Source of the DNA: Octopus vulgaris
Taxonomy: Eukaryota
NCBI GenBank assembly: GCA_951406725.2
Contig: OX597824.1
Coordinates: 66,836,001-66,900,000, forward strand
Direction: 5' to 3'
DNA length: 64,000 nucleotides
This document shows positions 4,307-58,952 of this stretch, piece by piece. Each line of letters starts with the position of its first letter. The stretch's first letter is position 1. The position numbers and the translations under genes were made by a program. Below the pieces are notes generated by a model that saw only the letters and a program-made list of their open reading frames with translations, had not been told where the DNA came from and ran no database searches.

Positions 4307-5139
4307 GTAAGTGTTTCTTTACGTCTTGTCTTCACAGATTCCAACGATTATGTGTATATCTATATAAACACACCCACTCAAATAATGCGACATTCTTACA
4401 GATATCTATCTTGTCTTAGACACACACACATATTTGTATAATTGAGTCAACGTCGTTGGTGTGGCAATGGATTGAAGCATTTATGCGAATGTATGCATCC
4501 GTGTATGGATTCATTTGTTTCTCTTTCACGTACCTGTGTATACATCATATGCAGATATAAAAAAGGTGAAATATTGTTTTGCTAAACACGAAATTCGAGT
4601 AAATGAGTAAATAACTGTTGAAAACCTAGTTCCTTAACTGTAGATATAATTAATTCAATGTTGTTTTAATAACTATTTCCATTCTTTTGTATTGACAAGG
4701 ATATATGTTTCTCATAGCCTGCCTTTGCTGTGTATTATCATCTGTTTTTGTCATTGAATACTCATTGAAAGAGAGTTAACTATATAGTGTAGATATAAAA
4801 CAAGCTCTTTAACTTCTTCATGCTAAGGTATTCCAGTGTGTATTTATACACAGTTAAGGTGAATATCTTACAGTGCTATAGTTTCCGGCCGATTGATATG
4901 TAAGATGTGCTTGTGTGGCGGTCATTGTTTCAGTAAGTGAATTTTAGAAGTTGCTCAAGTCGATTAGTCTGCTGTGAAGTTTATAGAAAACGCCAGCCAG
5001 CGAGCGCTTGCACTTGTACGGATACACACTGAAATATATACATGCCCATTATAAAGTTGCGAAGATATTTAATAGTCACGGAAGGAAATTGGAAGCGACA
5101 TTGATCTGTAAAAATCCAGATTGTCTAATCTCTCTTTCT

Positions 5140-8012: not shown

Positions 8013-9001
8013 TATCATCATCATTGTTTATCATCCGTTTTCCATTGGCAAGCCAGGAGGCCACACCAGGCTCCAATCTGATCTGGCAATGTTTCTACAA
8101 CTGGATGCCCTTCCAAATGCCAACCACTCTGAGAGTGTAGTGGGTGCTTTTTACATGGTACGGGCATTGGCCACGTTTGGATAGTACTTTTTACACACTA
8201 CTGGTACAGGGGCCAGTCGGGGGTGGAGTGCTGGCATGGACCATGTTTAGATGGTGCTTTTTACGTGCAGCTGGCATGGGAAACCAGTCAGGTGGCACTT
8301 GGCAGTGATCCACACATGAATGGTGCTTATTGCGTGCTACCAGCATGAGAGCCAGTCATGGCATCGGCCACAACTACACTTTCCATTTTTGATTGTGATT
8401 TTGATTTTGGATTTTACTTGACTCAATAGGTCTCCTCAAGCATGGTGTGTCACCTGACGATTCAAAGGTACCTTTTAAATGGGCTGGTTATGTGATACTG
8501 GTATACGCTATGGCTGTGATCTCACTTTACTTGCTGAGTCTTTTCAATCACAGCATATCTCCAGAGGTCTTGGTCTTATGCCATTGTCTCTGTGAGGACC
8601 AACGTTCGAAGGTCATGCTTCATCACCTCATCCCATGTCTCCCTCTTCTACGGGTTCCTTCCACTATTAAGGAGTGACGCTTATTCACACAGCTTTCCTC
8701 ATTCTTATGCAGCACATGACCATACCAGTGCAGTCGTCTCTCTTGCACACCACATCTGATGATTTTTATGTCCAGCATTTCTCTCAGGGCACTTTCTCTG
8801 TTGTGTGTGCACACTGACATTACACATCCAGCAGATCATACTAGCTTCATTTCTTTCAAGCCTACGCATGTCTTCAGCAGTCATGGCCCATATTTCACTG
8901 TTGTGTAGCATGGCAGTTCACACACATGCATCCTACAGTCTACCTTTCACTCTGAGAAAGAGGCCCTTTGTCACCAGTAGACGTAGGGGCTTTCTGAACT
9001 T
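8013..9001 (-). mobile_element. 5'-truncated RTE LINE, antisense in ATP6V1D intron 1
   Basis: Minus-strand ORFs MLHNSEIWAMTAEDMRRLERNEASMICWMCNVS and RCGVQERRLHWYGHV match the RTE C-terminus; same 3' UTR and (TCA)n tail. Confidence 0.9.
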
Positions 9002-9024
9002 TATATATATGTATATATATATAT

Positions 9025-14915: not shown

Positions 14916-15715
14916 GTAAGTATACTTTTTACTTCGCCCTCATCATCATTACATATCACACAAAAATTTTTTTTTTGCCACTTACCAGGTACCCACCTAT
15001 TGTTCTCACTTCCAATGTATCAAAGGTGATGAAGATAGTTGTCAACGACTACATCTTTTAGCTTTTTGAGCCTCTCTTTTTTTTTTCTTTTTTTTTCAGT
15101 AACCATCATTACTGTTTTTGTAACCAAATCCTCACCCTATCCCTGCTTTATCATACACCTGTAATCTCTATAGTAATATAGTTTCCTTAAACCTATTTAA
15201 CATGAGAACTTGTTAGCTAAATTGACCAGATATGGGCTCCATGTACATCTCATCACTTGAGCCAAAAATTTCTTTTAACACTACTCTGTTGCAATATGTA
15301 TTGACAAAGCTCTCTCTATCCTACATTCTATAAACCTTACATTCTGGGTTCAGTTCTGTATATCACACTTTTCCTTCTATACATTAAGGACCCTTCCACT
15401 GTAACTTCTAAGAATTATTCTTATTCACATTCACCTTCCACTCGCGTGCAATTTAAATAGTCCATGTCAGAGTTACACTGCTTTCATATACAAAGACATT
15501 GGATTTATTTTCAGTTGACACATCATGAGGATCTTACTTTCAAGAGCACCAAAACTTAATTCTTACTTCACATAACAAGGGAACTGTTTTGGAACATTGC
15601 ATCATCCTTACATATGATCAGTACCCTATTAAATAAAAAACAAACCCTTAGTCACTATAATTGTTAGTTTCAGTCTCAGCTGAGCTTTCATGGTGAACCA
15701 TACAATATCATAAAT

Positions 15716-18379
15716 CAACTGGAGGTTTCTAAGGGACAACCTGCTGAGAGCCACTGACCAGATCTGTGGTTGGTGCAAAGTCCCCTCTAGACCCAAAATA
15801 ACGTGGTGGTGGAACAATGTTGTTGACAGGGCTATTAGACAAAAGAAACAGGCTTGGAAGGACTGGAAGAACAGTGGTAGCAGGGAAGTGTATCAGACTG
15901 CCAGAAGGGAAGCTAGGAGGCAGGTGTATTTAGCCAGAGGAGAAGCAGATAAGAAAAAATGTGCCAATGTTCTGCGCTGTGAGGATGAAAGACTTGAGGT
16001 ATTTCATGTTGCAAGACAGTGTGTGAGAGAGAATCGTGATGTGGTAGGAGAGAAATGTGTTCGCATGGATGATGGTTCATTTGCGCTAAATGAGGATGCA
16101 AAGAGAGAGCTTTGGAGACGCCACTATGAAAGGTTGCTGAATAAAGAAAATGAATTGGATAAAGAGAGTCTGCTGAATGTCGACCCAACAGAGGGGCCAG
16201 CTATCTGAGTTGACAGTTCCTTGGTAGATAAGGCAATTAGAAGCATGAAGACAGGGAAAGCCCCAGGCCCATCAGGAACTACTGCAGAGATGCTCAAAAT
16301 ATCTGGTAGTGTCGGCTATAGCCTAGTCACCCATATAGTTAACCAGGTGATACACGAAGGAGTCATTCCCAATGACTGGTGTAGCAGCATAATAGTCAAC
16401 TGCTACAAAGGTAAAGGTGACGCCCTAGATACAAATAACTACAGGGGTATCAAGCTGCTGGATCAGGTAATGAAGGTTACGGAGAGGGTCATAGCCCAAC
16501 TAATTAGAGAGAAAGTCAGTTTAGATGAGATGCAGTTTGGGTTCATGCCAGGGAAAAGTACTACTGATGCTATATTCCTGGTAAGACAGCTGCAGGAGAA
16601 ATACCTAACCAAAGATAAGCCCCTGTACCTGGCTTTTGTTGACGTGGAGAAAGCCTTCAACAGGGTCCCCCAATCCCTTATCTGGTGGTCAATGAGGAAA
16701 CTAGGGATAGGTGAATGGTTAGTGAGAGCTGTGCGAGCCATGTACAGGGACACTGCTAGTAAGGTGAGGGTTGGCAACGAGTACAGTGAAGAATTCCGGG
16801 TAGAGGTTGGGGTCCACCAAGGTTCAGTCCTCAGTCCCCTCCTATTTATCATAGTCCTCCAGGCAATAACGGAGGAATTCAAGACAGGATGCTCCTCTAT
16901 GCTGATGACCTTGCTCTAATTGCTGAGTCACTATCAGAACTGGAGAAGTTTCAGGTGTGGAAGCAAGGATTAGAATCGAAGGGCCTTAGAGTCAACCTAG
17001 CTAAAACCAAAGTCCTAATAAGTAGGAAGGTAGACAAATCACAAACGCCTTCAAGTAGATGGCCCTGCTTGATCTGTAGAAAAGGCGTAGGTAGAAACTC
17101 TATAAGATGCACCAAGTGTAAGCTATGGACAAATAAGAGGTGCAGCAATGTCAAAGGAAGGCTAGCTAGGAAAATAGTTTTTGTATGTGGCAGATGCTCA
17201 GGAGCAATAAACACTGAAAATGTGAAGAGACCAACTTCCACCACATTCCAAGGAGAAAAACTAGAAATAGTTGATAGCTTCCGTTACCTAGGTGACCAAG
17301 TCAGTAGCGGGGGTGGGTGTGCTGAAAGTGTAACTGCTAGAGTAAGAATAGCCTGGGCAAAGTTCAGAGAGCTCTTACCCCTGCTGGTGACAAAAGGCCT
17401 CTCGCTCAGAGTAAAAGGCAGACTGTATGATGCATGTGTACGAACAGCCATGCTACATGGTAGTGAAACATGGGCCGTGACTGCTGAGGATATGCGTAAG
17501 CTCGCAAGGAATGAAGCCAGTATGCTCCGATGGATGTGTAATGTCAGTGTTCATACTCGACAGAGTGTAAGTACCTTGAGAGAAAAGTTGGACCTAAGAA
17601 GCATCAGTTGTGGTGTGCAAGAGAGACATTTGCGCTGGTATGGTCATGTGACGAGAATGGCTGAAGATAGTTGTGTGAAAAAGTGCCACACCCTAGCGGT
17701 TGAGGGAACCTGTGGAAGAGGTAGACCCCGGAAAACCTGGGACGAGGTGGTGAAGCACGACCTCTGAACTTTAGGTCTCACCGAGGAAATGACTAGAGAC
17801 CGAAACCTGTGGAAGTATGCTGTGCGTGAGAAGACCCGGCAGGACAAGTGAGACCATAACCCATGGCCTCTACCTGGGATGTAGCCAGTCCACTTATGCA
17901 TACCTTTCCTTCTTGAGACACAAAACTCTACTTGTGAAGACCTGTTGAGGCAAGTGGAAATCGAAATCAAAATCGAAATCGATCAACATCAATGGAAATT
18001 GCAGCTGTGATACCAGTGCCGGTGGCAAGTAAGCGGACCATCCGAACGTGGCCGTTGCCAGCGCAACCCCGATGGGCCTCCGTGCCGGTGGCATGTAAAA
18101 AGCACCATCCGATCGTGGCCATTGCCAGCCTCACCTGGCCCCCGTGCCGGTGGCACGTAAAAAGCACCATCCAACCGTGGCCGTTTGCCAGCCCCGTCTG
18201 GCACGTAAAAAGCACCCACTACACTCACGGAGTGGTTGGCGTTAGGAAGGGCATCCAGCTGTAGAAACATTGCCAGATCAGACTGGGCCTGGTGCAGCCT
18301 TCTGGCTTCCCAGACCCCAGTTGAACCGTCCAACCCATGCTAGCATGGAAAGCGGACACTAAATGATGATGATGATGAT
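15716..18379 (+). mobile_element. 5'-truncated RTE-clade LINE in ATP6V1D intron 4 (RT pseudogene)
   Basis: TWWWN, GKAPGPSG, NYRGIKLL, QFGFMPGKSTTDAIF, FVDVEKAFN, GVHQGSVLSPLLF, LYADDL, FRYLG, LRWYGHV, RGRPRKTW. Stops at 16206 and 17765 and a frameshift near 16890. 3' UTR has tandem repeats and a (GAT)n tail. Confidence 0.96.
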
Positions 18380-19272
18380 AATATGGTCATGGTATTCTCA
18401 GCATTGTAGTGGTGGGAGAGTACTTAATCTGTCATCCAGTTTAACACCATCTTCTGAGCCTTGTAATAACTTTAGAGGAGCTCACTCTGTTGCTAACATT
18501 CAAACTGGGTTTACAGTCTGTGGATAATTTTCCCCTTTCCTCTAACAACGCCTGTAAAAAGTCATCATGTGCACTGGCCTTCATTGTCTGTTGAGGCCAT
18601 AAAAAAAAAAGAAAGAAAGAAAGCTTATTAGAGTAAGAAAACATTTCAGCCTTGATGAGAGACTGATATTAAAATAATGCTTAAATCACTGGCTGGGATG
18701 ATGCTACATTCTTATGCATATTTATCATCACCCCACTCCGCTAAAGGCCATGTTACTGATTGGTAAAGATATTTCATCAACTAGCTACAAACATGAATTA
18801 GATCACACATACACACAGGTTTCCTGGCTTTGTATCTTTAGCTTCTCCAACTAACGAGCTACATACTACTTGTATCTCCTAAGAGCTCTAGATGCCCCCC
18901 TTCTTTCCTCCACTTGTCATCATGTGTGTGTGTATGTACGTACATACGTGTGTGTACCCAATGCTTCTTTCCTGGAGCCACAGTCCTTGCAAGTTCACTT
19001 TTGGCCCATATTTTTGCTTCAGCTATCAACAACCTACAGAATTACCAACTGAACTACTGCCACATTAGTCCCACTAGCTTGAAAACATGTGCAAAGATCA
19101 TGGAAGTTATGCAACATATCTTTCCACCACCCCACACTCTTTTACTTGTATCTGTATGTATGCAAGCATACATAGAAGCATTTGTACATATACACATCTT
19201 TACATGTTTACACCTACACAACTTCTGGTCATATGTTTCCTTTGTGTGACCCATGATCTTTTCTCTTTCCAG

Positions 19273-19765: not shown

Positions 19766-20204
19766 TATTGCTGCTGCTGTTCTCACTGCAATTATTGTTG
19801 TTTTTATTGCTGTTGTTCTTTTTGCTGGTATTATATTATTCTGGCTGCCATTGTTCCTCTTTGTGCTGTTGTGTTGTTCTTACTGCTACAATTGTTGCCA
19901 CTCACACCACTTTTTCTCTTGCTTCTTTTCTCAATACTTTTGCGATGTTCTGGTTATTGTCAATAGCCTGGTGATGGATGGATTCTTCCAAGGCTTATTC
20001 TTGAAACACATTTTTATTTTAATAAGTTAATTTTGGTGCTGATGCCACATAAAAAGAACGCAATCCAATCTGTAAATTCGTTGACATTAGGAAAGGCATC
20101 CAGCTGTAGAAACCATGCCAAAGCAGATAGTACAGCTTTGCATAGTCCTCAGGTATGCCAGCTTCTGTTAAACCGTCCTACCCATGGTACACATTAAATG
20201 ATGG

Positions 20205-21353
20205 TAACAACAGGGACAATAGACACCACAGATACTCAGAAAACAGATTCCATCACACTCCAGGGGAAGAAACTAGAAGTAGTTGATAGTTTCCGCTACC
20301 TGGGTGACCAAGTTAGTAGTGGGGGTGGATGCTCAGAGAGTGTCACCACTAGAATACGAATAGCCTGGGCAAAGTTCAGAAAGCTCCTACCCCTACTGGC
20401 GACAAAGGGTCTCTCACTCGAAGTGAAAGGTAGATTGTATGACGCATGTGTGGGAACTGCCATGCTTCACGGTAGTGAAACATGGGCTGTGACTGCAGAG
20501 GACATGCGTAGACTTGAAAGGAATGAAGCTAGCATGATCCGCTGGATGTGTAATGTCAGTGTGCGTGCACGACAGAGGGTAAGCACCCTGAGAGAAGTGC
20601 TGGACATAAGAAGCATCAGATGTGGTGTGCAAGAGCGACGCTTGCGATGGTATGGTCATGTACTGCGGATGGATGAGGAGAGATGTGTGAAGAAGTGCCA
20701 CTCCCAAACAGTTGAAGGTATGGGATAAGGTAGTCAAGCATGACCTCAGAGTGTTGGGCCTCACTGAGGCAATGACGAAGGACCGAGATCTCTGGAGATA
20801 TGCTGTGACTGCAAAGACCCGGGCTGCTTCCTGCACCAGTTCCGCAAAGCCCCTGCCCATTCAAAGTACCTTGGATTCCAGAACATCTCGCTGTGCTTGA
20901 GGAGACCTGTTGAGTCAAGTACATGAACATCGAAATAAATATCAATGAAAATAGTAGTTGTGATACCTGTGCCGGTGGCACACAAAAAGTACCATCCGAA
21001 CTTGGCCGATGCCAGCACCGCCTCAACTTGCTTCTGTGCCGGTGGCACATAAAAAGCACCATCTGGACGTGGCTGATGCCAGCGCCGCCTTGGCTGGCTT
21101 CTGTGCCGGTGGCACGCTAAAAGCACCAACCGATCATGGCCAATGCCAGACTCCCCTGGCACCTGTGCAGGTGGCACATAAAAAGCACCCACTACACTCG
21201 CGGAATGGTTGACGTTAGGAAGAGCATCCAGCTGTAGAAACACTGCCAGATCAGACTGGAGCCTGGTGCAGCCCCTGGCTTCCCAGACCCCAGTCGAACC
21301 GTTCAACCCGTGCTAGCGCGGAAAACGGACGTTAAACGATGATGATGATGATG
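20205..21353 (+). mobile_element. 5'-truncated RTE LINE in ATP6V1D intron 5
   Basis: ORF 20198-20728 (LEVVDSFRYLGDQVSSGGG...LRWYGHV) closely resembles 16889-17767; same 3' UTR repeats and (GAT)n tail. Confidence 0.93.
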
Positions 21354-21566
21354 AACATGGTCTGTTCAGGCATTCTTTGGTAACTCAAAATATAAAAGGC
21401 TGGAACTAAATACTGCAAGACATTTTGTCTGATGCTTTAGTAAATCTGTCAATCTGCCAACTCTTAGAAATAGCAATAATTATAAATTCAAATTATGATG
21501 AATGTAAACAAACAAACGAAGTTTGCTTTAGTAGCGTTCAGATGTCTTAGAAAGTTAAAGAAGTGA

Positions 21567-28796: not shown

Positions 28797-29519
28797 ATAT
28801 ATATATATATATATATGACGGGCTTCTAATTTCCATTTGACAAATCAACTCACAAGGCTTTGGTTGGTTGAGGGATATGAGAAAAGACATTTGCCCAAGG
28901 TGAGACTGAATCTAAAACGGTGTAGTTGGGAAGCAAACTTCTTACAACACATCCAGATGTGACAGATTAACTTGGACCACTGTTGTTTCAGACGACATTA
29001 TTTTTCTCTCTCTTGAAATATAATATCATTCTAAATATAAATGTCTTTATAATTTACAATTTGTTGCTTAAAAAAGATGAAGGCTGTTCGTTCATTGGTA
29101 AACAAGGGAGATAACACTTAAAAGTAACACGGAAAATTCAAAGTGCAATTAAGCTCTAAAACAGCACTGATTAAGCAAAAGCAATTAAACTATAGTCATC
29201 CATTTTTCTCTGGAGTCTTTTTGTATGAGAATAGTATACTCTGGACGATGTAATCTAATGTGCCTTTTCTTTAAAGATTAGAGTGTGATTTGAGGGAAAT
29301 GTGGATTCTATTTCTAACTGTTGGAAGGTCTCTGTAGAGGCTCCAATGAAAATAAAGTTGGTTATATAGGTAACTAATTTCATAAGAAAATCGAATTGAC
29401 TTATTCCAGCTAGAAAAGAATGAAAGGTGAGTCAGTCTTAACTGGCTTTGAACTTCTCAGTGCATAGAGAATCTGAAATAAATTCGCTTTGTTTATATAT
29501 TAAGAAATATGATTACATA

Positions 29520-31800
29520 TTGATTACGGTTATCAATTGCACTACGGAGGAACCTCTAGGTGACTCTGATCATGCTATGATCATCGCCAATCTGGCTCTT
29601 GCGGGCAACAAAAACCTGAACCATCTCCAATCTGCTTCCTTCGATTGGAAGAGAGCAGATTGGAACCTGTACCACACTGAACTACAGCACCCAAACTGGC
29701 GTGAATTCTACAACTCTGGAGATGTGAATACTATACTCCAGAGTATCCTGGACTCAATATGGGCAGCATGTGCAGCATCAGTGCCACGTAAACAAAAAAA
29801 GAAGAACCGCCCCAAAAGGGCAATTTGGGAAACTTCAGCGGTCCGACTTGCCAGGAGGGAACGTCGGACTGCTGAACAGGAATACAGGTTGCATAAATCA
29901 GACACCAACAGGAAGAAGCGGAATAAATCCTCCAACCATCTCAAGCAAGTAACAAAAAAAGCAGTGCTTGAATTTGAACAGTGCATAGCAGCCAATCCTG
30001 ACAGTAAGGTTTTCTGGAAATATGTGCACTCAAAGCAGAGACCTCACTCTCCAGTGGGCCCTCTTCGCAACCCTCACACAAACCAGATCACTGACGACCC
30101 CAAGGAATGCGCAGAACTCATTGCCGAGTGCTATGCAAACATATTCACTGTTGAAAGTCAAGATGTACCATCTTCACCATCACTAACAGCAAACTCCATA
30201 ACAACTATGGAATTTACACCTGCAATGCTGCGACGTCACCTTCAAAATAAGCGCAACTATGCCTCCCCTGGTCTCGATGGAGTTACATACCTGCTTCTCA
30301 AACGTGGCAGGCACTTCCTTTTACACCAGCTTTCTATTTTCTTCCAGTACTGTCTCAACAATGGTGCTACTCCGGAGCAGTGGAAAACTGCTAGTGTCAT
30401 TCCTCTGTTCAAAAAGGGCGACCGCACATCACCTGTCAACTATCGCCCAGTCAGTCTCACTAGCTGTATTGCAAAACTGATGGAATCGTGTGTCAGAGAA
30501 ACACTCTGGAACTTCTGGAGCTCTCACAGTCTCATCCGACCCTCACAATATGGATTTGTCCCTAACTCCAGCTGCAGTGACCAGCTTGTCGAGTTCCTTG
30601 AGGACATTACTCAGATTACTGACAGTGGCTCATGGGTGGATGTTGTCTACCTTGACTTTGCTAAGGCTTTCAACTCTGTGCCACACAAAAGGCTTATGGT
30701 GAAACTCTCTGCAATGGGTGTGGGGGATGACCTTTTTAACTGGTTGAAATCCTTCATCCTCAGCCGAAAGGAGGTTGTCACAGTTCTAGGACAGCACTCT
30801 ACACCATATGAGATGTCATCGGGTGTACCACAGGGATCTGTCCTTGGTCCCCTCTTGTTTGTGGCATACATTAACGACATAGATGCCAATTTAAAGAATG
30901 CCACAGTATTGAAATATGCAGACGACATCAAGCTGTACCTTGAAATCAAGAGGACAGATCCTGATGTCTACAACTCTTTCCTGCAATCAGACCTAGACAC
31001 AATGCAGCAATGGATCACAGACTGGCAACTGAAACTGGCTGTGGACAAGTGTACCACCATGCATTTTGGGAGAAAAAACCCTGCGTTCACATACTCCCTC
31101 CACAACACTGATATCAAGAAATCCTCTTGCGAGCGTGACCTAGGCATCACTGTCAGCAGTGATTTGCGTTGGACAAAGCATATCTCTAAGATTGTCAGGA
31201 AGGCCGAGGGTGTCTTGGCATCACTCAGCAGGTCTTTTGTTAGCCGCTCTCCAGCCATCTATTTAAAACTGTATACAGCTATGGTACGACCACACTTGGA
31301 ATTTGCATCATCAGTTTGGAACCCCTATCTTGCACAGAACATTGACCTCCTGGAATCTGTCCAGAGACGTGCAACCAAACGCATACCCTCCATCAGACAC
31401 CTACCATATTCTGAGCGCCTTGTTTCCCTGGGCATGGATTCACTGAAGCTCCGGCGTCTGGCGACGGACTTGGTAAACACCCACAAAGTTATCAACCACC
31501 TCACCAACAACAACACTGAACACCTTTTTGATCTCCATATGTCTAACACACGTGGACATGCCTACAAAGTCAGAAAACAATACAGCTCTCATGACTTTCG
31601 GAAACATTTTTTCACGCTCAGAGTTGCTGAAGCATGGAATAAACTGCCTGCGTCAGTTGTTGACTGCCATGACACTGCATCTTTTAAGGCCCTCATGCTT
31701 TCCGAAATCCGCCGAAACTACACCTGATTATATATACACTTTAGATGAGTTGTAGTGCACCTGAGCACTGTACACAATTATTATTATTATTATTATTATA
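29520..31800 (+). mobile_element. 5'-truncated CR1-clade LINE with an uninterrupted ORF2 remainder (end of APE, RT, C-terminus)
   Basis: LGDSDH (APE end), SPGLDG, NYRPVSLTS, YLDFAKAFNSVPH, SGVPQGSVLGPLLF, YADDIK, ERDLG, VRPHLEF, TRGH, FFTLRVAEAWNKLP. Stop at 31727, short 3' UTR, (ATT)n tail. Confidence 0.96.
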
Positions 31801-32034
31801 TTTCTAAATAATTTGAAATTACTGGAAAGTATTTTACGTCAAAATTAAAATTTTACATTTGTAAAAGTTCCCATTCCTGCTGGAAAATTAGAAAAATTGA
31901 AGAAAAACTATGGGCTACACGTTATGCTGTTAGTAAAACCGTTCAACTTTCTCCTTTCGTGCATATGTGTGTGTGTGTATATACATATATATATTGATAA
32001 AAACGGTAAGACGGGTCATAGCATTTTTCCGATG

Positions 32035-32104
32035 GCCGGATAACTGAAGAGATAGCGGCGTGGAATTCCACCTCGGCATCCGAAACTCGGAGTTTTATCA
32101 TGGC
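32035..32104 (+). ncRNA. Putative type I hammerhead ribozyme 1
   Basis: Stem I GCC-G-GATAA / TTATC-AT-GGC; core CTGAAGA (32044-50); long imperfect stem II capped by GTGG-AATT-CCAC; GAAA (32082-85); near-palindromic stem III ACTC-G-GAGT; triplet GUU at 32092-94. Confidence 0.7.
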
Positions 32105-32179
32105 TACCGAATTGTCACATATTACATTTACAGATATATATATATATAAAATATATATGTTCATAGCCACTTCTCTAGC

Positions 32180-32243
32180 AGACGGGGTGCCCAGTACTGA
32201 AGAGAGGCAGAAATAGCCTGAAACCAAGCTGGTCTGTCCGTCT
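32180..32243 (+). ncRNA. Putative type I hammerhead ribozyme 2
   Basis: Core CTGAAGA (32197-203); stem II AGGC-AGAAATA-GCCT; GAAA (32220-23); stem III ACCA-AGC-TGGT; triplet GUC at 32232-34; bulged stem I closed by AGACGG/CCGTCT. Confidence 0.7.
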
Positions 32244-35122
32244 CGTCGCAATATCTCGCAAGCAGCTGTGCATCGTTAACCGCCATGTTAAAGTGACTAC
32301 GAATATTACTTGTTAGTACAACTACTACGTTGATCTCTTAGAGAGATTTTAGAACTAGTATTTTTGCTTGTAATATATATGTGTGTGTGTGTGTAGATCT
32401 CGAAGTTACTCAACATATTTGATTTTATGAAATGGGCTTGATAAGTTACCTCCCTTTAATCCAATTTTTCTATCTGCTACAATTCCAATTTCATTTTTTA
32501 ATATATATATTCTGTGATGTCAAGTCTTTTCTTGATTAATAACCCCACAAATTTCTCCTAGAACCACAATCTATACGTTAACATTAGGGATTTAAATAAC
32601 TGTTGAAAGAAAAAAAAGTATATTGCTACCCCAATACTTAAATTATTCACGTTTTCTTCTATCCAAAGAAGGTTTATACTAAGTTAGTAAAGAAATTAAT
32701 ATCAGGAGATATGTGAAGTTTTAGAGTTGGAGAGAAAAGGAGAGATGGATGTTAAAGGCACACAGAGGTGATTATGGAGTGTAAGGAAAGAGACTGTCAA
32801 TGGCAGGTATGAGAGTGTGATGAGAATGATAGTAGATAAGAAGCAGTGTTAAAGATGAGATATAGCAGTCCTAAGATGTAGTTCAGAGGAGAGGGAGAAA
32901 TAACTGAAAAAACAGAAAAGGGTGATTGGTGTGGAAAATTAAGTGGGATGGGATGATATTGAGAATGAGGGATGGATTGACAAATCATAAAAGGAAGTAG
33001 TTCCAAAGAGATGGGTGGGGTAAATGCAAGCTCTAGGTTTTAGTTTTCTTTCTCTAAATAAAAGGGAAAATTGGAAGATGTCATTCAGTACATCACCACC
33101 TACTCGAATCATTTAGTCAAGCCAGTAGTCCAGACGAGTTATTTCCCTTAACACAGTTTTCCTAATGATCTGATTGCATGCTCACACCAAATTGCTGGTA
33201 TCGATGCTAATGTTTGAAATAAATAATTTCTATTATTAGCAGAATTGGAAGAACGTCCGACAAATAGCTTCGCAGAATCTAGTTACATCTCTCTATGCCC
33301 TGAGTTCAAATTCCGTCTAAGTCAAATTTGGCTTTCATTCTTCAGATATCAATTAAATCTATACCAAATATTTGACAGCTATCAATTTAATCGATTATTC
33401 CCTTCTGCCCTAAGGTGCTTGATCTTGTGTTAGAGATTTTGATAATTATAATGTTGTCTGTCATGGAAGCAAGAGAAACATTTCAGAGGGGTTAAATCCG
33501 GTACTTTGTTTAATAGATCCTCAAGTACGAAAAACAAAGTCGATCCTTGTGATATTTGAACTTTGAACGACGAAATACAATATTTAAAGGTGGGATTGTT
33601 TAATTAACGATATTTCCTCATCTATTATCCCACGATCTTTAATTAAAATAATTATTTCTAATATACACACAAGACCAGAAATTTGGGGGCGAGATTTGAA
33701 CTTAGAGCGTAATAAAACTATTTCTAATTAGGATAATGATAAAAGATGAATAATGCGTGACACATTTATCAGCCAGGTCACATTAAAAATGATCTGCTAC
33801 CATCAATTAAGCAAACCAGTCCTTTTTGTTTTTATAGTTGAACTGTCAACGACTAAACCGGTGACACTCCTCCAGGCTCTCGCCCAAGCAGGTGGAAGAA
33901 CAACCTGACAGGACAAAAGAATAGTACCTATCTAAACATCCATCCATCAAACCTACAAAGAAAACTGTTATAGCAGACGCTTGTCTTTGATGCTGCGCAG
34001 TAAAATTGAACTCCGAACGACATGATAACAAGCTGAACTTCTTAACCGCATTTTAATTTTTTTCCTTGTTGTCAAAATATCTTATATATTGTCTAATAAG
34101 GATAAAGCCTTTTGTTGACAATTGATTCATTTCATGTTTCCTGCCTACCCGCGTGCGTGTGTTTATATATCTATGTATATATAATGTAAAGTGAGTAAAA
34201 AAACTGTCAAACAATGGTTAGATGGTGAGATTCAGGTCAAAACTTTAAATTCTATAAATGACTCACAGTAAATATTTTTCTCAACAAACTCTCAGATTTC
34301 CTCAGAGATTTCTTCGCTATCTGCGCGTCTACGTCACTGAAATAAACACGTTCTTTCATTCTCAAGAAACAGGAAACTTTGTACATACATGTGACAAAAA
34401 CATGCGGTTTGTTTACTGTTTTTGACCTGACAGCCTCCAGATCGAAACACTATCACTATACAAAGTAATGTGAACTCTATAATCATAGTTCGTGTGAATT
34501 TTAAACTTTTCTCATAACGAATTAAAATAACATATTTGATTTATTTCTTATCGAATATTTATTTACTGAAGTTGAAGAGAAAAAAAAGGAGTTTAAAAAA
34601 AAACAGAGAGGTAAGATGATTTATTATAATTGTTGTTAAAAACAAAATACTTTCTAATATTTCTCCAGGTGACAGCAGGGGCAGTGAAAATTAATCAACA
34701 TTCTCATTATACTAATTTCTAATCAACGACAATATCTCTAAGTGGTCACACCACCTGTTAGAAATAGCAACCAAATCTGGCCCCCACCCAAATCACAGCA
34801 GCCCAGCGTTTTTAGATAGATACATTGGAAAAGAGAGACGGGGAAAAGACTAGATGCTCACGGCTGGAATGTCTAACCGCATCTTTACTTGTTTAGGCCC
34901 AATCTTGACTATTGTGCTTTTACATTTTCACTATAGCTATTGTTCAGTTTTTGTAATTTTCTGATTTTAAGCAGTTGTTTTAATTTTATGAGTGTGTTAT
35001 TTTATTCATCCATAACTCTTATCCATCTATCCCGAAAGATTTATATACTTTCTACTGTAGACATAAGGCCTAATTTTTGCAGGAGCGGCTAATCGATAAC
35101 ATCGGCCTGAGTACTCGACTTG

Positions 35123-38871: not shown

Positions 38872-40490
38872 TTTTATTATTACCCATACAGGGCCAACAA
38901 AGAGGGACATACATCACATTGGGGACATACAAAAATTGCAATAAAAAAAAAAAATGTATGATATAATGAAAGATGGAAACATGTAAAATGAAAATGGTGT
39001 TACTTGCCCCTTCAAGTAACATCACTTGCTTCCTTTCCTCTATTCTCCATTATGTTTATCCCATACCTTTTTTTGAAGTTTTTAAAATTCTATATCCTGT
39101 GGAAGTTTTTCTTTGTTAAAGTCAACTTTCCACAGTCAATATTCCCCTTTGCATCTCTCTATTTCCATCCTTTGCTGTTCCGTTATTAATAGCACTATAC
39201 CTTCCACTCTGTCCTCAGCCTCTACATCAACATGGACTGTGTTTTTCCATTCAATTGTCTTTTCAAACAGTTCATCATCATATATTAATTACACACTCAC
39301 AACAGCCAATGGGAGGGTAAGTTTGTGGGTCATTGTGTAAATGTGATCTTTTCTTTTGTTTTTGTGATGGAGGGGGAATGGGAAGGCTTAGTGTCTGCAG
39401 GGCGAAGGTGGGACAAAGAGGGTATGAGAGGGCCTTGTGTAGTTGATGGGTGAAGTTCTGTGTGTGTCGGACTTGTCTTTTTCCCCCTTTTATTTCCGGT
39501 ATTTTCCCATTCTTCCTCTTTTACTTTTTCTGAAACCATTTCTTCCTCCTCTTGTCCTTCCTGGGGCTTCTCTTGTGGCTTCTCCACTTTTTTATCCGGT
39601 GGAGGGCATTTCGCTCTTATGTGGCCCTTCTGGCCACATTTAAAATGCCGAGGGATTCTGCCCTCTACCCTAACATTCAATATGGTTCCGCTCACAGTCA
39701 CCGTTTCCACCATTTCTTCTATTGTTTCTTTTGAACCTTGAATTATCATGTTCGAACCTTGGCCTTTCCAATTCACGCTTTTCGTTTCTGTGGCCTGGAT
39801 CACCGCTATTTTGTCCTCAGTATCAACCAAGACGGGAGCTGCTATCTAGGCCACATCTGTCTCTGGTGGAATTCCTTCTACCCTTACCCGTGACGCTCTC
39901 TGTCCCGGGTACGTGGGTAGAAGTACTAGTGGTGTTGCTGAGTGTTTTCATTTTTGAACCTGACTTCAACTTCTCCGAATATCAATCCTCTGGTATGATA
40001 TGTTATTTCTTGCCAGATTGGCCGCAGCGCCTTCTCTACTTGCTCAATTGTCACGTGGTCAATTATTTTCCTTCTAAATCGAGTAGGTTTTGTACGTCAC
40101 TGTTCTTCCTTTCATTATTTTTGTCGTATCATGCGGGGGGTTACTTGCACGTTGTAACCGTCCCGACTTAATAACTTCTTGAATTTTTCCACTTCAATCT
40201 CCACATTGTCATCCGATTCTCGGGCGACGCCTGCGAACTTCTTCTTTCTTCCTTCCAATTCCCTATCCATAACTCCAATAGTCCTTAACAGTTCATCTTC
40301 AGATGTTGACAGTTCCGATCCGCTAAGGTTGAGTAGAACATTTTTTTTACTTGTCATGCTTCCCTCAAAACGCTGAAGGTCAGCACAAGCATACACAACG
40401 CTGCAATGCAGCACAGAACACTCAAACACCACAGAAAACCACCAGCACAAAAACAAACAAAAAGCAAACTTCAGAACTGGGTTGCGTGAT
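38872..40490 (-). mobile_element. Tx1/L1-like non-LTR element with a disrupted gag-like ORF1 and no visible ORF2
   Basis: ORF from ATG 40357 (MTSKKNV...), continuing in a broken frame with RVEGRIPRHFKCGQKGHIRAKC (CCHC knuckle, first Cys replaced by His). The 3' end GTCCCTCTTTGTTGGCCCTGTATGGGTAATAATAAAA resembles the tail at 40500-40560. Confidence 0.6.
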
Positions 40491-41989
40491 GCAAATTCAA
40501 TTTCTTTATTAGGCATAAAGCCCCAAACACAGAAAGGGACACCACAAGGACAGACAAGACCACAGTGGGGACAAAAAGAATAAAACGAATGTAAATGAGA
40601 TGAAAAATTATTTAAAAATGAAAATGGTCGCATGGATGGTCACTGTTGGAATCAAGGCTGCCTTAGAGAATTAATTCAGCTTATAGCTATGTATTATTAA
40701 CACACTCGTTCGTTCTGTCTAGTAATGTTGGCGTATCCCTTGTGAAAAGTATAGTGTAAAATGAATGGATACTATGGAACAAGCAATACACGTCTCATTT
40801 ATCAGTTATTTCATTACATTCAATGTTAAATTTCCAATAAGAATGATTAGCATGGCTCTTTCTGCGCACCAGCTCAATTCTAGGCATAATTTCAGGGACA
40901 TAACCACATATCATTCTCAGTTGACAATCTGGCAACGAAGTTTGTTTTTAGTGGTTGAAACCTTTTATTCACAGCGGGAACAGTTACCGGTGCTTCACAC
41001 ATTTCTTTTTTACAGATGTAAAAGAGATCACCGTGGGACACCAGAATGATGTTTGGGAAGGGGTTACAGAAAGTGCTTTCATTGCGGTATCATTAATACA
41101 TTTCACAAATCTATCTTGGGAATTGTTTGGAAACTGATCTGAAATTAATTTTAAAGAGGTATGAAATGAATTGATGATTCAATCCACTAATAATAGGAAA
41201 ATAGTACACTATTTCATTATGTCACTATAAAGGGGTAAAAAACCCCATTGGTCATGAATGTTAATGGAATTGCACCTAGAAAGTTCCTCTCTAAAGCACA
41301 CAAGTCCGGGCAAGGTTGTTTTTATGGAAGACCAGCAGTCGCCCTTGCATACCGGCCTCCCCTCTCCACGCCACCAGTGTTCCAAAAGAAAGGCAGAGTC
41401 CGATGCAGCTTGGCATCAGTGACGTCGCAACTAATTTCTACAGTTGAATGAAAAATAAAGTGTAAAATAAAGTGTCTTGCTCAAGAACACAACACACAGT
41501 CCGGTCTGGGAATCGGACTCACTACCTCATGATTGTGAATCCGACACTATAACCACTCAGCCATGCGCCTTCACTATATCACTGTATCGACCAGATTATC
41601 GGATGTCGTTGCTTCCTCGCATTGCTGTTGCTTCTGAATGATGCCATCCCGTTGGTTAAGCGAACAGGCCAACATTCCTCTTGAAAGAGGGTAATGCCCG
41701 TCACAGGGTTACTCATTTACACTTGAGTGGATTAGAGTAACGTGAAGTGAGGGGTTTTACTCAAGAACACAACTGGTCTGAGAATCGAAACCACGATCTT
41801 GAGTGCAACGCCCTAACCACTTAGCCACGTGCTTTTTACATATCAAAACGAAGTAGGCCCGGTCCAACATACTGACGTTATTTTATGTCCTCCACTTGTA
41901 GTAGTGTAGAAATTTGACTCATATTCTCTAAAACATTGTCATGACCCATTTCCAGCTTATCGTTCTACAGCTCAAGTTTCATCCAAAAT

Positions 41990-45759: not shown

Positions 45760-47398
45760 AGTGAAGAAGGGTCTGGTGGGGCAGATCAGGACTAAATAGG
45801 AAGATCTTCAACTCCCAGGTGTTCTGTCTATACACTGTATTGTACATCAGCAAGCACTCTGTAGGAAAGACTTAAATATTTCTTGCATACTGAAACCAGT
45901 CGTTTCTGTGGTGAACTGCATTCAAGTTCAAGCACTTAATCAACACCGGTTCCAGGTTTTTCTTGAAGAAATTGATTCTGAATTCTGTGACTTGCCGTAT
46001 CACGTAGCATTGAGGTGGTTCAGCTGTGGTAAAGTCCTGTGTCATTTTTATAAGCTCTGAAGAGAAATAGATGTTTTTCTCATCAAAAAGGATAGAGCTG
46101 ATCCACTTCTGTCAGATCCTATTGGGCTGTTAAAGTTGTCGTTTTTGGTTGATATCACATTCCACATGAATGAATTGAAATTGAAACTTCAGGGAAAGGA
46201 TAACCTTATCTGTGATCTCTGCAGAATCATCAAAGTATTTTGGGGAAAGCTATCATTGTTTGAAACACAAGTGGAAAGAGGAAACTTCTCTCATTTTCAG
46301 TGTTTCAAAGTTTCATGCTGGAATCACAGAAGATATCAACCTCCAGTTTCTGAAGAAGATTATTCTTGACTTAAATAAGTAATTTTTTGAAAGATTTTCA
46401 GATCTTGACAGAATTGAGTGAAATTCTTCTGTTCCAGAATCCATTTGTTTGTAACCTTGATGATGTGCCATTTGAACTACAGTTGGTGTCCATTGATTTG
46501 CAAGCAAGTGACTTGTTGAAAGAGAAACACAGAGAAGGAAAACTTGTTGAACTTTGTCGCTGCTTACCTGATGATGAGTTTTCAAAGTTGAAGAAATTCG
46601 CCTCTAGTATGGCGTGAGTGTTAGGAACAACTAATGTTTGTGAGCAAGCATTTTCAAAAATGAAGTATGCAAAGTCAGCACATCAAACGAGGTTGACTGA
46701 TGAACATTTAAAAGCAATTCTCTTGGTTGAATGCAGCAATTCCAAAGCAAGTATTGATGATATCTCAAAAGCTAAACACCAGTTTCACAAATCTCACTAA
46801 CCTTTTTTGCTATTTAGTTTGTGAGATTTGGATATGTGTGCATTGTGTATGATATAACTATCTTAATGCTAACGTTGCCTTCTTTGATAAATTTTGCTGT
46901 GTGGTAAGTAGCTTGCTTACCAACCACATAGTTCCAGGTTCAGTTCCATTGCATGGCACTTTAGGCGAGTGTCTTCTACTATAGCCTTGGGCCGACCAAA
47001 GCCTTGTGAGTGGATTTGGTAGACGGAAACTGAAAGAAGCCCGTCGTATATATGTATAGTGTGAGTGTTTGTGTGTCTGTGTTTGTCCCCCTAACATCAC
47101 TTGACAACCAATGCTGGTGTGTTTATGCTCCCATAACTTAGTGGTTCAGCAAAAAAGACCGATAGAATAAGTACTAGGCTTACAAAGAATAAATCCTGGG
47201 GTCGATTCACTCGACTAAAGGCGGTGCTCCAGCATGGCAGCAGTCAAATGACTGAAACAAGTAAAAGACAGAGAAATATGTTGGTTGTCTTTATTTTTTT
47301 GTGTATTCACTGTATTGTTTTGAACAAAAGGGTTATGCAGCCTGCGTTCATCATTCTCCGTTATCTGACCCACTGTGAAAAAAGTTTGGTGACCCCTG
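45760..47398 (+). mobile_element. 5'-truncated hAT (Charlie/Buster/SPIN-type) transposase relic with right TIR
   Basis: HCIVHQQALC, LPYHVALRWFSCGKVL, SFLVDITFHMNELKLKLQGK, GTTNVCEQAFSKMK...RLTDEHL (hAT dimerisation domain). TIR AGTTTGGTGACCCCTG is followed by GTCTAGCC (nnnTAnnn-type target). Confidence 0.9.
46895..47272 (+). mobile_element. tRNA-derived SINE, family B, inserted in the hAT relic
   Basis: Matches 61907-62270. Confidence 0.85.
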
Positions 47399-52619: not shown

Positions 52620-53256
52620 CTGGGTCCATCAATATGATCCTGAGAAAGTCCAGTCAAAGCAATGGAAGCATGATAACTCACCACCCCCAAAGAAGGTTTG
52701 TATACAACCCTCAGCAGGCAAGGTGAAACTCACAGTCTTTTGAGACCAATGCGGAATAGTGATGATGGATTTGCTAGCAAAGGGCACCACAATTAATGGG
52801 GCATATTATGCTTCTCTGCTGCAGAAATTGCGGGACATAATCAAAGATGAGAGGCATGTCATGCTGACCAAAGGAGTCTGCCTCCTCCAAGACAATGCCC
52901 CAATTCACAATGTGCATGTTACCCAGATGAAAGCACACTCCTGTGGCTATGTAATCCTTCCTCATCTTCCTTACTCTACTGACCTTGCACCATCTGACTT
53001 CCACCTCTTTCCAACCATGAAGTCCTTTTTGAAAAGGAAACACATTTCAGATGCTGAACTTCCGAGGTAAGGTCTTGGCTCCCGATGCAACCTACTGACT
53101 TCTATAGATGAGGTCTTCATAGCTGCATAAAACGATGGGAGAAGTGTGTCACCATTGGTGGCGGCTATGTAGAGTAGGACTCATAATTATTCCCAGTTTT
53201 GTTTATCCCAGTCTTTGGGAAGTGGGTCAGGGGAAATCTTTAATGAACACCCCTCA
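52620..53256 (+). mobile_element. mariner (DD34D) transposase 3' fragment with right TIR
   Basis: SAGKV, TINGAYY, LLQDNAPIH...HLPYSTDLAPSDFHLF, with 34 residues counted between the last two catalytic Asp. Ends AATGAACACCCCTCA|TA. Confidence 0.92.
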
Positions 53257-55925: not shown

Positions 55926-58684
55926 TCTAGACTGATGGTAGGTTGTGTGCATTTGCATGTGTCTGTGTTTTCGGTTTCTGGGCTTTGTCTGAAAGAACAA
56001 GCTGGATTGTGTTGTGCTCTTATGGCATTCACATGCAACATAAAAAAACTAACACTAATAAGATTGTTGACATTAATACCTTTCTCGAATACATTCACAT
56101 TGAAGTATTTGTCTTGGGTAAAAATTCCTGAGGTTCTATGTTCTGAGTGAAAGGATTGGGGACAGGAGCTTTTGTTGAGTATAGATGGACACAACATAGG
56201 CAATGAGAGTGGACAAATGTGTGAGTCATGAATACCTGAATGGAAATGATACAAGACTGGTTTGCTACAAAGAGCAGAGACCATTATAGTAGCAGTAGAA
56301 TTGACGAAGAGTGGATACAGCATATCTATGGATTACATATTGGATGGAATTGGTGAATGTCTACATATCAATCAGTGGAATGGTTTTTCCTTTAAATGCT
56401 GTTTCAGATGTCTGTGTGTTGGCTGCAGTACTGTCATAGATCTCGGCGTAGCACTCCATTTTGGGTGCAACTCTGAGCTTTGTAGACTGTTGGCAATTGT
56501 TGGGAGCTGAAATATTTTCTGGTTTGGAGAAGAAAGGGTCAGTTTTTGTAGAGCAGAATTTGCTTTGAGAGTTACAATATGCGATAACTTAACATATTAA
56601 GAGTGTTAGCATCTCCCTACTTCCCTCTCTTTACTGTGAAGCACTAATGTCAGGTGGGTCAAAAATATTTATAGGTTTTAAACATTTAACCTTGAAGCAA
56701 TACATCTCGGCTGAAAAAAATTTTATTAATCAAAATAATTGTTTCTGATATAATGGCACAAGGCCTGAATTAATCAAAATATTCATTAGGGTCTACATAT
56801 TCTATGAACAAGAAATAATTCTATTCTGGAAACATTTTGGAGTCTTGGAAATGAAGAATTCTTTGATGGTATTTTGAGCTGTAGCTTGATTGTTGTAAAG
56901 CTTTTTTTCAGGAAGCTATCAAGCTGGTTGGAGGAATGATAAATGTGTGCAGGGATGTCTTGTCAAGTAAGCTGGTTGTAGTGGTTTCATAACCAGTTGA
57001 ATTTCTCTTTTGTCATTAGCAGGACATAGTTTTGTCATACTGAAGGCCAATGCTGGACATAAATTTTGCAGATTTTGGTGCATTTTGCTTATTTCCTGTG
57101 TAAGGTGGTGAGCTGGCTGAATCATTAGTATGCTGGACAAAATGCTTAGCAGCATTTCATCTGTCTTCACTTTCTGAGTTCAAATTCCACCTGCCAAGGT
57201 CAACTTGCCTTTCAGCACTGGGGTTAATATAAACAACTTATCCCCTGCCCTGAAATTGCTGGTGTTGTGCCAAAATTTGAAACTAATATTTCTCTGCTGT
57301 TTTGGTTTCTATAAGATTTGAGACATAGTAGTGGACACTTCCACTTGCCAACCACCAAACAGTGACCATCACCTCATAACCTTCTTTAAATGCAATATCA
57401 GTCTGAGAAATTGATTTGGTGTTTCTGACAATGATGCAGTCACAATTTATTGGGGAGGATATAGTCCCTAAAATCAACCTTGATTCATAACAATATTTTA
57501 TCTACTTCAGAAGGATGGGGAAAAGAAAATTAAGTTTGGTGAGAACTGAACTTGGAATGTAAACAACCAGAACAAAATACCACAGCATTTTGCTCAACCC
57601 ATTGCCTGTCCAATGCATTTTCATAAGTTTGTTCCAAATGCCCATACTTGTTTTCAGATATTTATTTAACCATTGATTCATTCATTCTGAGTGATATAAA
57701 GCTGTCTTTTCATAAGTTCCAAGTTGCTCTGGTGGCTGGAAAGAAATTGGTAATATGTATCATATATGATGGATAAATCTCAGGGAAATATATTAACAGG
57801 ACAGGTTAAGGGTTAAACCAATTTTCTTTGGAGGAAATCCTGGAACTCATAATTTCCCATTTCTCCTCCTGTAATATGTTTGAACGTTTTTTATTCTCCA
57901 AATAAAATATTTTATAAATGACACAAATAATTACTTTGATTGCCGACTCATCCTATTATGACACACTACTATGAATATTAGAAGAGTGTCAATGTTAGTG
58001 ACATTCTTTAAGATTATGTAATGTCTATTTTTATTGGAAAGGTCAGAGAATGAATTTAACCATTCAGTTCATGGATTTTGGCACATTGAAAGGATGGGTT
58101 TCCCTTTGTCAGTCAGGATGATAATGATAATAATATTATTATTATGATTATTATGGTGGTAAACTGGCTGAAGCATTAGCACACTGGAGAAAAAGCTTAG
58201 AAATGTTTCTATCTTTACATTCTGAGTTCAAATTCCACCAAGATCGACTTTGCCTTTCACCCTTTTAAGGTCAATAAACAAAGTACCAATTGAACCAATT
58301 GAACATTAGGGTTGACGTAATCAACTATACCCCTCCTTTGAACTTGCTGGCCTTGTGCCAAGAATTTGAAATCATTATTATTATTATCATGGTAGTGAGC
58401 TGGCAGAATCATTAGCACATCACGCCAAATTTTTCTGTTTTTTTTACATTCTGAGTTCAAATTCTGCCAAAGTTGATTTTGCTCTTTTCCTTTTGGATCA
58501 GTAAAATAAGTACCAGTCAAGTACTGGCATAATGTAATCTACTAGACCCCGCTGCTTAAAAATGTCAGGCCTTGTGCTTATAGAAGAAAGGATTGATGTT
58601 GTTATTATTAAAGCACTGAGCTGGCAAAATCGTTAGAATGCTTAGCGACATTCCATCTGTCCTTATGTATCGAGTTCAAATTCC

Positions 58685-58952
58685 GCTTTTGTTGAGTATA
58701 GATGGACACAACATAGGCAATGAGAGTGGACAAATGTGTGAGTCATGAATACCTGAATGGAAATGATACAAGACTGGTTTGCTACAAAGAGCAGAGACCA
58801 TTATAGTAGCAGTAGAATTGACGAAGAGTGGATACAGCATATCTATGGATTACATATTGGATGGAATTGGTGAATGTCTACATATCAATCAGTGGAATGG
58901 TTTTTCCTTTAAATGCTGTTTCAGATGTCTGTGTGTTGGCTGCAGTACTGTC
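58685..58952 (+). repeat. 268-bp direct duplicate of 56168-56435 inserted in a SINE
   Basis: The sequence appears identical by eye, and ORFs 56262 and 58779 translate identically over the shared span. Confidence 0.95.

Follow-up and report, generated by a model that had tools for sequence, protein, structure and literature searches.

The closest described systems to the locus reported here are the type I hammerhead ribozymes of metazoan Penelope-like elements (PLEs) and of retrozymes. PLE hammerheads combine a long helix II with a 4–5-bp helix I and a helix III that is palindromic; most of them are single, dispersed motifs, and they cleave slowly, as dimers. Canonical metazoan hammerheads have a 6-bp helix I and a 4-bp helix II, and the 5' side of helix I is where the intron of the Drosophila virilis Penelope element ends (all described in PMC4209133). 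In an anole Poseidon element, the open reading frame (ORF) starts where stem II begins and the ribozyme depends on the protein, its cleavage being dispensable for insertion in vitro (PMC11167929). Inserted PLE copies frequently show 5' truncation and are sometimes inverted, have a preference for (TA)n, and in several clades favor microsatellites (PMC8557442); PLEs also tend to integrate beside earlier PLE copies (PMC6765202).

Retrozymes are units of 150–450 nt that carry canonical type I hammerheads and form circles (PMC7229834); they are frequently monomeric, and descent from PLE pseudo-LTRs has been proposed for them (10.64898/2026.07.22.740005). The consequences of insertions in natural hammerhead cores range from tolerated to damaging (PMC3088659). 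Among cephalopods, the annotation of Octopus vulgaris lists 31 recently active Penelope-like families, in a paper whose main text is silent on ribozymes (PMC13282606), and the giant squid genome has 235 Rfam Hammerhead_1 matches (PMC6962438).

Results

Two hammerhead cores lie on one strand of a repeat-rich window

We analyzed a 64-kb stretch of Octopus vulgaris DNA (the window), in which an earlier note had pointed to two hammerhead folds in adjacent modules (hereafter modules 1 and 2, carrying HHR1 and HHR2; Table 1). The window is repeat-rich animal DNA (GC 31–46%, 53 tandem-repeat rows, numerous dispersed repeats) with LINE, Helitron and DDE-transposase remnants, including Pfam RVT_1 at 16209-17764 and 29442-31724. 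The second of these belongs to a 5'-truncated LINE ORF (29442-31727) with an (ATT)n tail, which ends ~200 nt upstream of the two-module unit on the same strand.

A descriptor scan of both strands, with 100 block-wise dinucleotide shuffles as control, recovered both cores on the + strand and in type I order: CUGAAGA at 32044 and 32197, GAAA at 32082 and 32220, and NUH sites GUU and GUC with cuts after 32094 and 32234, i.e., 140 nt apart. In the shuffles such cores arose at 0.11 per 64 kb, and none of the 100 contained a pair less than 300 nt apart; the claim of two same-strand type I cores in the right order therefore stands, and the cut positions predicted at that time are those of the scan. 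Both motifs contain the CUGANGA, GAAA and NUH elements of a type I core. All three core-closing helices are present in HHR1; in HHR2, helix I is broken in the present copy and 6 bp long in the consensus of the family's loose contig ends. A third descriptor match, at 46350, is AT-rich and probably due to chance.

Rfam did not echo the descriptor scan: its hammerhead models gave no match at gathering score in the window, nor at E ≤ 10 on 31900-32450, a miss that the variant geometry described below may explain. Cephalopod hammerheads have been counted by Rfam in the giant squid paper, in the parts relevant here without description of families (PMC6962438), whereas the present two motifs are ones that Rfam misses. 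The minimum-energy fold is neither motif, and folding z-scores range from −1.4 to +0.3.

Table 1. Features of the two-module unit and its edges (window coordinates).
Feature	Position	Strand	Basis or remark
ATAT(GT)6A, left copy of a candidate 17–19-bp target-site duplication around both modules	31963-31979	+	Low complexity, uncertain
TA-rich tract on the left of module 1, probably targeted by insertion	31980-31994	+	Sequence; target role inferred
21 nt unlike the main family's upstream sequence; subfamily or private 5' junction	31995-32015	+	No listed piece begins before 32016; other loose ends there
Module 1, terminal part of a highly abundant repeat family, likely pseudo-LTR end of a Penelope-like element	32016-32128	+	Depth ratios; PLE identity inferred
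HHR1, type I	32033-32106	+	Descriptor scan, pair-by-pair reading, family variants
TA tract between modules	32134-32157	+	Sequence
Module 2, copy of the other family with internal deletions, non-coding, hairpin-rich, retrozyme-like	32158-32372	+	Contig tables
HHR2, type I	32181-32247	+	Descriptor scan, pair-by-pair reading; family majority differs at 32219, 32227, 32239
First internal-deletion junction in module 2, about 34 nt relative to other copies	32249-32251	+	X1 and X5 contigs with 34 extra letters
Second internal-deletion junction in module 2	32281-32282	+	One X5 contig has 35 nt; an overlap of the two recurring loose ends would make it about 55 nt
Short TA tract (four units), then (GT)7	32373-32380	+	Sequence
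ATAT(GT)7A, right-hand counterpart in the candidate duplication	32377-32395	+	Sequence

The modules had been described as each bounded by (TA)n, which is accurate for the left and central tracts; the third has just four units before it gives way to (GT)7. Window self-comparison revealed no further copies of either module above chance.

The modules belong to families of unlike abundance

Sequencing-run contigs that contain part of the stretch are found in 20 run rows from 11 studies with 6 organism labels, no row being recorded as RNA. Four of 24 listed runs were used (X1, X5, X7 and X12; DNA or unlabelled contigs, bearing organism labels A, B, C and E). The threshold was 80% likeness, and the tool skipped repeats such as the TA tracts. 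Run X1 may be the source sample. Its flank depth is 39–55, and both the sequence from the LINE ORF to the unit and that to the right of the unit lie at this flank level in X1, so no other high-copy element adjoins the two-module unit.

Against this flank level, depth reaches 5e5–1.5e6 over module 1 and 3.6e3–4e4 over module 2; the modules lie at 4,475–32,469 and 39–889 times the flank, respectively, in the three of four runs that have flank cover; the ratio of peak depths (module 1/module 2) is 24–38 in all four. Summed contig depth is not copy number, although its orders of magnitude agree between runs, and rough copy numbers are about 10^4 for the module 1 family and hundreds for that of module 2. 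The two modules are thus shown to be members of two separate high-copy families, in keeping with the earlier view that they are unrelated, and the 24–38-fold abundance gap means that most module 1 copies stand without module 2. The same data bear out half of the proposal that these are two non-coding, TA-targeting hammerhead retroelements: the two families are observed as depth, and TA targeting is suggested by this locus together with the PLE literature. Depth increases toward the 3' end in both modules, the pattern that 5' truncation would give.

Among the listed contig pieces none spans both modules, which is weak evidence given that the TA tract is skipped, and none of the joints crosses the whole unit (X5 and X7 are covered on the right flank only, X12 on neither). 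Contig variants are unphased, many fall at CpG, and the variant table apparently covers only positions that lie at least some 31 nt inside the aligned ends.

Module 1 resembles the hammerhead ends of Penelope-like elements

Listed pieces of the first family span 32016, or slightly later, to about 32112, and a family loose end in X5 keeps matching to about 32121 at the 3' boundary. Upstream of 32016, other copies have a T-rich run that ends in AG at 32020-21, a putative arrangement resembling a splice acceptor. Opposite-strand joints within module 1 occur in 1–2 contigs per run in three runs.

Helix I of HHR1 consists of 5 bp, a 1x2 loop and a further 5 bp, and is followed by the core heptamer (32044-50). 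In the present copy, helix II (32051-32080) is long and interrupted, with 15 positions and three mismatches, and a spare C at 32080/81 precedes GAAA (32082-85); helix III (32085-93) is a 9-nt palindrome with a central G, which leads into GUU. The palindromic, loopless tip of stem II depends on A32065, where T accounts for 82–99.9% of the depth of other copies, making this tip private to the present copy; we therefore rejected it as a family feature, and the family's helix II has 13 positions with two standing mismatches. The extra nucleotide at the stem II junction, raised in the earlier note as a reason to doubt activity, is in HHR1 the spare C, which is a family trait, C32081 varying in only about 5% of depth.

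The bin 32077-32103 (GAAA, helix III and cut site) is 1.8–6.5 times deeper than the helix II bin, identifying it as the most widely shared part, common to subfamilies that differ in helix II. The core heptamer is preserved in the family's loose ends, which have either A or C at position 7, the free position of the core. Seven listed variants fall at paired places of helix II, five of which keep or restore pairing and two of which break it; both breaking variants and two of the five pair-keepers are CpG transitions. Being unphased and often at CpG, these variants do not establish stem covariation. The silence of the variant table over the HHR1 core was rejected as proof of conservation, being a filter effect near aligned ends.

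The exact module 1 core pattern had no match in the metagenome, prokaryote-genome and viral collections. Looser patterns returned 5 + 27 + 1 loci, none of which, by eye, extends into matching helices; these 33 loci were dropped as chance, with no BLASTN similarity to either module at E < 0.01. The 40-residue frame that runs through HHR1 (32022-32141) matched no PLE protein and nothing among longer proteins, and against 1.84 billion proteins it gave a single repetitive, unrelated match.

In its type I order, 5-bp helix I, long helix II, G10.1-C11.1 pair and palindromic helix III, and in being present as thousands of dispersed single copies in subfamilies, module 1 matches the metazoan PLE pseudo-LTR hammerheads as these are profiled in PMC4209133. 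Where stem II begins, the G that most of the family has at 32054 creates an ATG, akin to the ORF start of the anole Poseidon element (PMC11167929). Three features depart from the PLE hammerheads of PMC4209133: helix II has 13 positions with two mismatches rather than 7–8 bp, helix III has 3–4 bp rather than none or 1–2, and the unpaired base between positions 9 and 10.1 is absent, the spare base (C32080/81) lying instead on the 3' side of helix II.

Module 2 resembles a retrozyme unit

Module 2 is present as a single copy in the window. Its hammerhead is framed by an outer helix of six pairs (32181-86/32242-47), a 4x1 internal loop and helix I (32191-96/32235-40); the core (32197-203) continues into a short helix II (32204-19), GAAA (32220-23), a 4-bp helix III (32223-33) and GUC. 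Reading along helix I in the present copy, the six positions are A-U, U.G, G.U, A x C, C x C and C-G, i.e., two Watson–Crick and two G.U pairs. Stem I of HHR2 had been regarded as bulged in a way that could permit docking with loop II, a description that is too mild for this copy, in which the A x C and C x C mismatches leave the helix broken.

Other copies provide what is missing here. Majority letters of the family are C at 32219 (60–71%), G at 32227 (86–91%) and G at 32239 (56–84%), which restore, respectively, the G10.1-C11.1 pair, a fifth pair in helix III and one of the pairs in helix I; the supposed extra junction nucleotide of HHR2 accordingly becomes, in the family, a G10.1-C11.1 pair with a bulged A. 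In all four runs, the consensus of the loose ends that follow the cut site can form 6 bp with 32191-32196, and it runs on into sequence able to pair with the 5' end of module 2. X12 contigs have 31–39 extra letters at 32237-32248. The present copy is set apart by three substituted positions on helix I's 3' strand, together with the two internal deletions, and damage to HHR2 is shown to be private to it.

Loose ends recur at 32281 in three of the four listed runs and at 32282 in all four, and the extra segments at 32249/51 and 32281/82 each contain hairpin-like inverted repeats. Adding the about 70–90 nt deleted to the 215 nt here suggests a complete unit of about 300 nt, which, as predicted from its letters, has canonical type I geometry. 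The 3' part of module 2 is 1.9–4.8 times deeper than the undeleted 32185-32211. No head-to-tail (end-to-start) joint was found among 15 of 55 contig joints.

With a canonical hammerhead, a length within 150–450 nt, no coding capacity and less than 50% GC, the module 2 family has the profile of a retrozyme unit. As in the animal non-LTR retrozymes of PMC7229834 and 10.64898/2026.07.22.740005, the family has a 6-bp helix I, an internal loop, a short helix II capped by a purine-rich loop; the about 300-nt, non-coding, low-GC unit with several hairpins is also shared with retrozymes as those sources portray them, among which solo monomers are common. Unlike in those elements, helix III is a 4–5-bp near-palindrome and, in the family majority, G10.1 is followed by a bulged A. 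Active retrozymes are defined there by head-to-tail arrays and circular RNA, whereas module 2 is known here from DNA sequence, as a doubly deleted monomer.

Discussion

We favor, at a probability of roughly 0.7, the reading that the locus holds one worn copy each of two abundant hammerhead families, likely PLE derivatives within one TA microsatellite, with release of a 140-nt RNA predicted to be absent. Module 1 would be the 5'-truncated pseudo-LTR end of a PLE, whose hammerhead would be slow in cleaving PLE transcripts and would probably do so as a homodimer via the palindromic helix III or aided by the PLE protein. Module 2 would be one monomer of a retrozyme-like RNA that is non-autonomous, ~300 nt long and equipped with a canonical hammerhead. 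A PLE would have supplied both the reverse transcriptase that turned this RNA into DNA and, in the same enzyme, the GIY-YIG endonuclease that would nick AT-rich DNA. Both modules would have been delivered to TA tracts, most simply with module 1 entering the tract at the 5' edge of module 2; because every insertion would leave TA tracts at its edges, newer insertions can end up next to older ones. If both families pick (TA)4+ tracts randomly, about 2–19 same-strand neighbours are expected per genome, as against 0.05–0.5 without targeting (assuming a 2.8-Gb genome (PMC13282606) and the window's 32 tracts per 64 kb).

Several observations form a counterpoint to this account. Neither module is linked to a PLE ORF, the flanks are single-copy and the peptide searches were negative; HHR1 also departs from PLE hammerheads at 9/10.1, as described above. 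The 17–19-bp candidate duplication that brackets the unit would fit a single joint insertion as well as sequential ones.

Such a joint insertion, in which both modules arrived inside one target-site duplication, either because a PLE reverse transcriptase jumped templates and made a chimeric cDNA or because the two form a small composite subfamily, we consider distinctly unlikely. It would account for the shared orientation of the modules and for the placement of ATAT(GT)6A at 31963 and ATAT(GT)7A at 32377, two of only four such motifs on the + strand of the 64 kb and both abutting the unit, and PLEs are reported to produce complex tandem insertions (PMC8557442). The bracketing motif, however, is a low-complexity compound microsatellite whose copies differ by one GT unit, and insertion of module 2, with module 1 later entering its TA edge, gives the same duplication; the missing two-module contig piece points the same way, weakly, with the TA tract skipped. 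A bolder form of the family reading would see two undescribed, Rfam-invisible families in the lineage, a ~ten-thousand-copy variant with a 13-bp helix II and a bulge next to G10.1-C11.1, and a dispersed, multi-hairpin ~300-nt retrozyme, found with four organism labels, whose intact copies would still yield circular RNA, at a locus that may record a template jump of reverse transcriptase; this we regard as unlikely, if worth stating. That one or both families instead owe their mobility to an ordinary LINE (RTE or CR1-like), as SINE-like elements with a hammerhead, appears quite improbable: LINE reverse transcriptase remnants (RVT_1) do occur in the window and SINE-like elements with hammerheads are described from Schistosoma (PMC6765202), but window self-comparison lists no similarity of the modules to LINE ends, and a PLE is the better fit to a TA-tract context combined with a palindromic helix III.

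The earlier note had also entertained a functional unit in which both cuts together release a 140-nt RNA. Two same-strand cores 140 nt apart, with no such pair in shuffles, invite this idea, and hammerhead cleavage leaves the ends that ligases join in retrozymes (PMC7229834). The families nevertheless differ 24–38-fold in abundance, and HHR2 has lost, in the present copy only, the helix I pairs that its family retains. The helix III palindromes favor self-pairing (−9.7 and −10.1 kcal/mol) over cross-pairing at merely −2.5 kcal/mol, on which ground we rejected an HHR1–HHR2 heterodimer; with so weak a cross-pairing the two would give each other no help, making 140-nt excision unlikely. Forcing the hammerhead fold costs 13.5–19 kcal/mol of ensemble energy for HHR2 and 6–12 for HHR1, values meaningful for ranking only, with no active-ribozyme control. 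The excised piece would include a TA tract, its folding does not surpass that of shuffled sequence (z −1.4), and the two internal deletions in module 2 suggest neutral decay. On these points, the excision unit is highly improbable. HHR1 could still adopt a monomeric fold of 3 bp plus a triloop, which may allow some cleavage there.

Returning to two worn copies of two abundant families, the locus itself would be ordinary repeat debris and its tandem arrangement likely incidental. Our search of the cephalopod hammerhead and retrozyme literature, partly swamped by general cephalopod papers and with supplements that could contain some, found no description of such families. Shared target preference alone can yield "tandem hammerheads" in repeat-rich animal genomes, which calls for caution when such pairs are met. 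The families add two hammerhead types overlooked by Rfam, and both retain G10.1-C11.1 beside a one-base bulge, a small structural variation. With a PLE-type and a retrozyme-type family in one TA target, the proposed partnership between PLEs and retrozymes becomes testable within a single genome.

Sequence words shared by the two hammerhead modules

Module 1 (the end of an abundant repeat family, carrying the hammerhead HHR1) and module 2 (from a second, rarer family, carrying HHR2) both start with the hexamer TCATAG, which in other copies of module 1 is preceded by a T-rich run, giving it a splice-acceptor-like appearance, and which in module 2 may form part of a long closing helix. The 5' piece of module 1 that is unlike the main family's upstream sequence has a 7-nt word in common with module 2, and over its first 10 nt it is an almost complete complement of the sequence around the HHR1 cut site; both features may reflect chance or a junction scar.

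A third match to the hammerhead descriptor, AT-rich and with weak helices, is probably fortuitous.

Transposon-derived sequence and other features in the window

On the same strand as the hammerheads, and ending ~200 nt upstream of them, lies a 5'-truncated LINE that looks CR1/L2-like. Its RT frame (Pfam RVT_1) stays open over 761 codons, and its tail is (ATT)n. The RTE-like LINE remnants display local tandem units of 62-67 bp and end in a SINE-like tail that recurs many times within the window. Self-comparison of the window revealed a 268-bp direct repeat (100% identity, copies 2.5 kb apart). It may be an LTR-like pair of recent origin, or the product of a duplication or of faulty assembly. 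On the minus strand, two frames stay open for 171-174 codons, and one of them contains a CCHC-like motif. They had no match in a Pfam search and may be a LINE ORF1 remnant.

Positions of the features in the window
Feature	Position	Strand
Helitron helicase-like fragment	2011-2397	
RTE-like LINE remnants	8046-9002, 15714-18388, 20198-21362	
5'-truncated LINE	29442-31801	+
TCATAG, modules 1 and 2	32016-32021, 32161-32166	
7-nt word, 5' piece of module 1 and module 2	32009-32015, 32180-32186	
Open frames	39330-40639	-
Third descriptor match	46350-46399	
DDE transposase fragment, partial	52744-53070	
Direct repeat	56168-56435, 58685-58952
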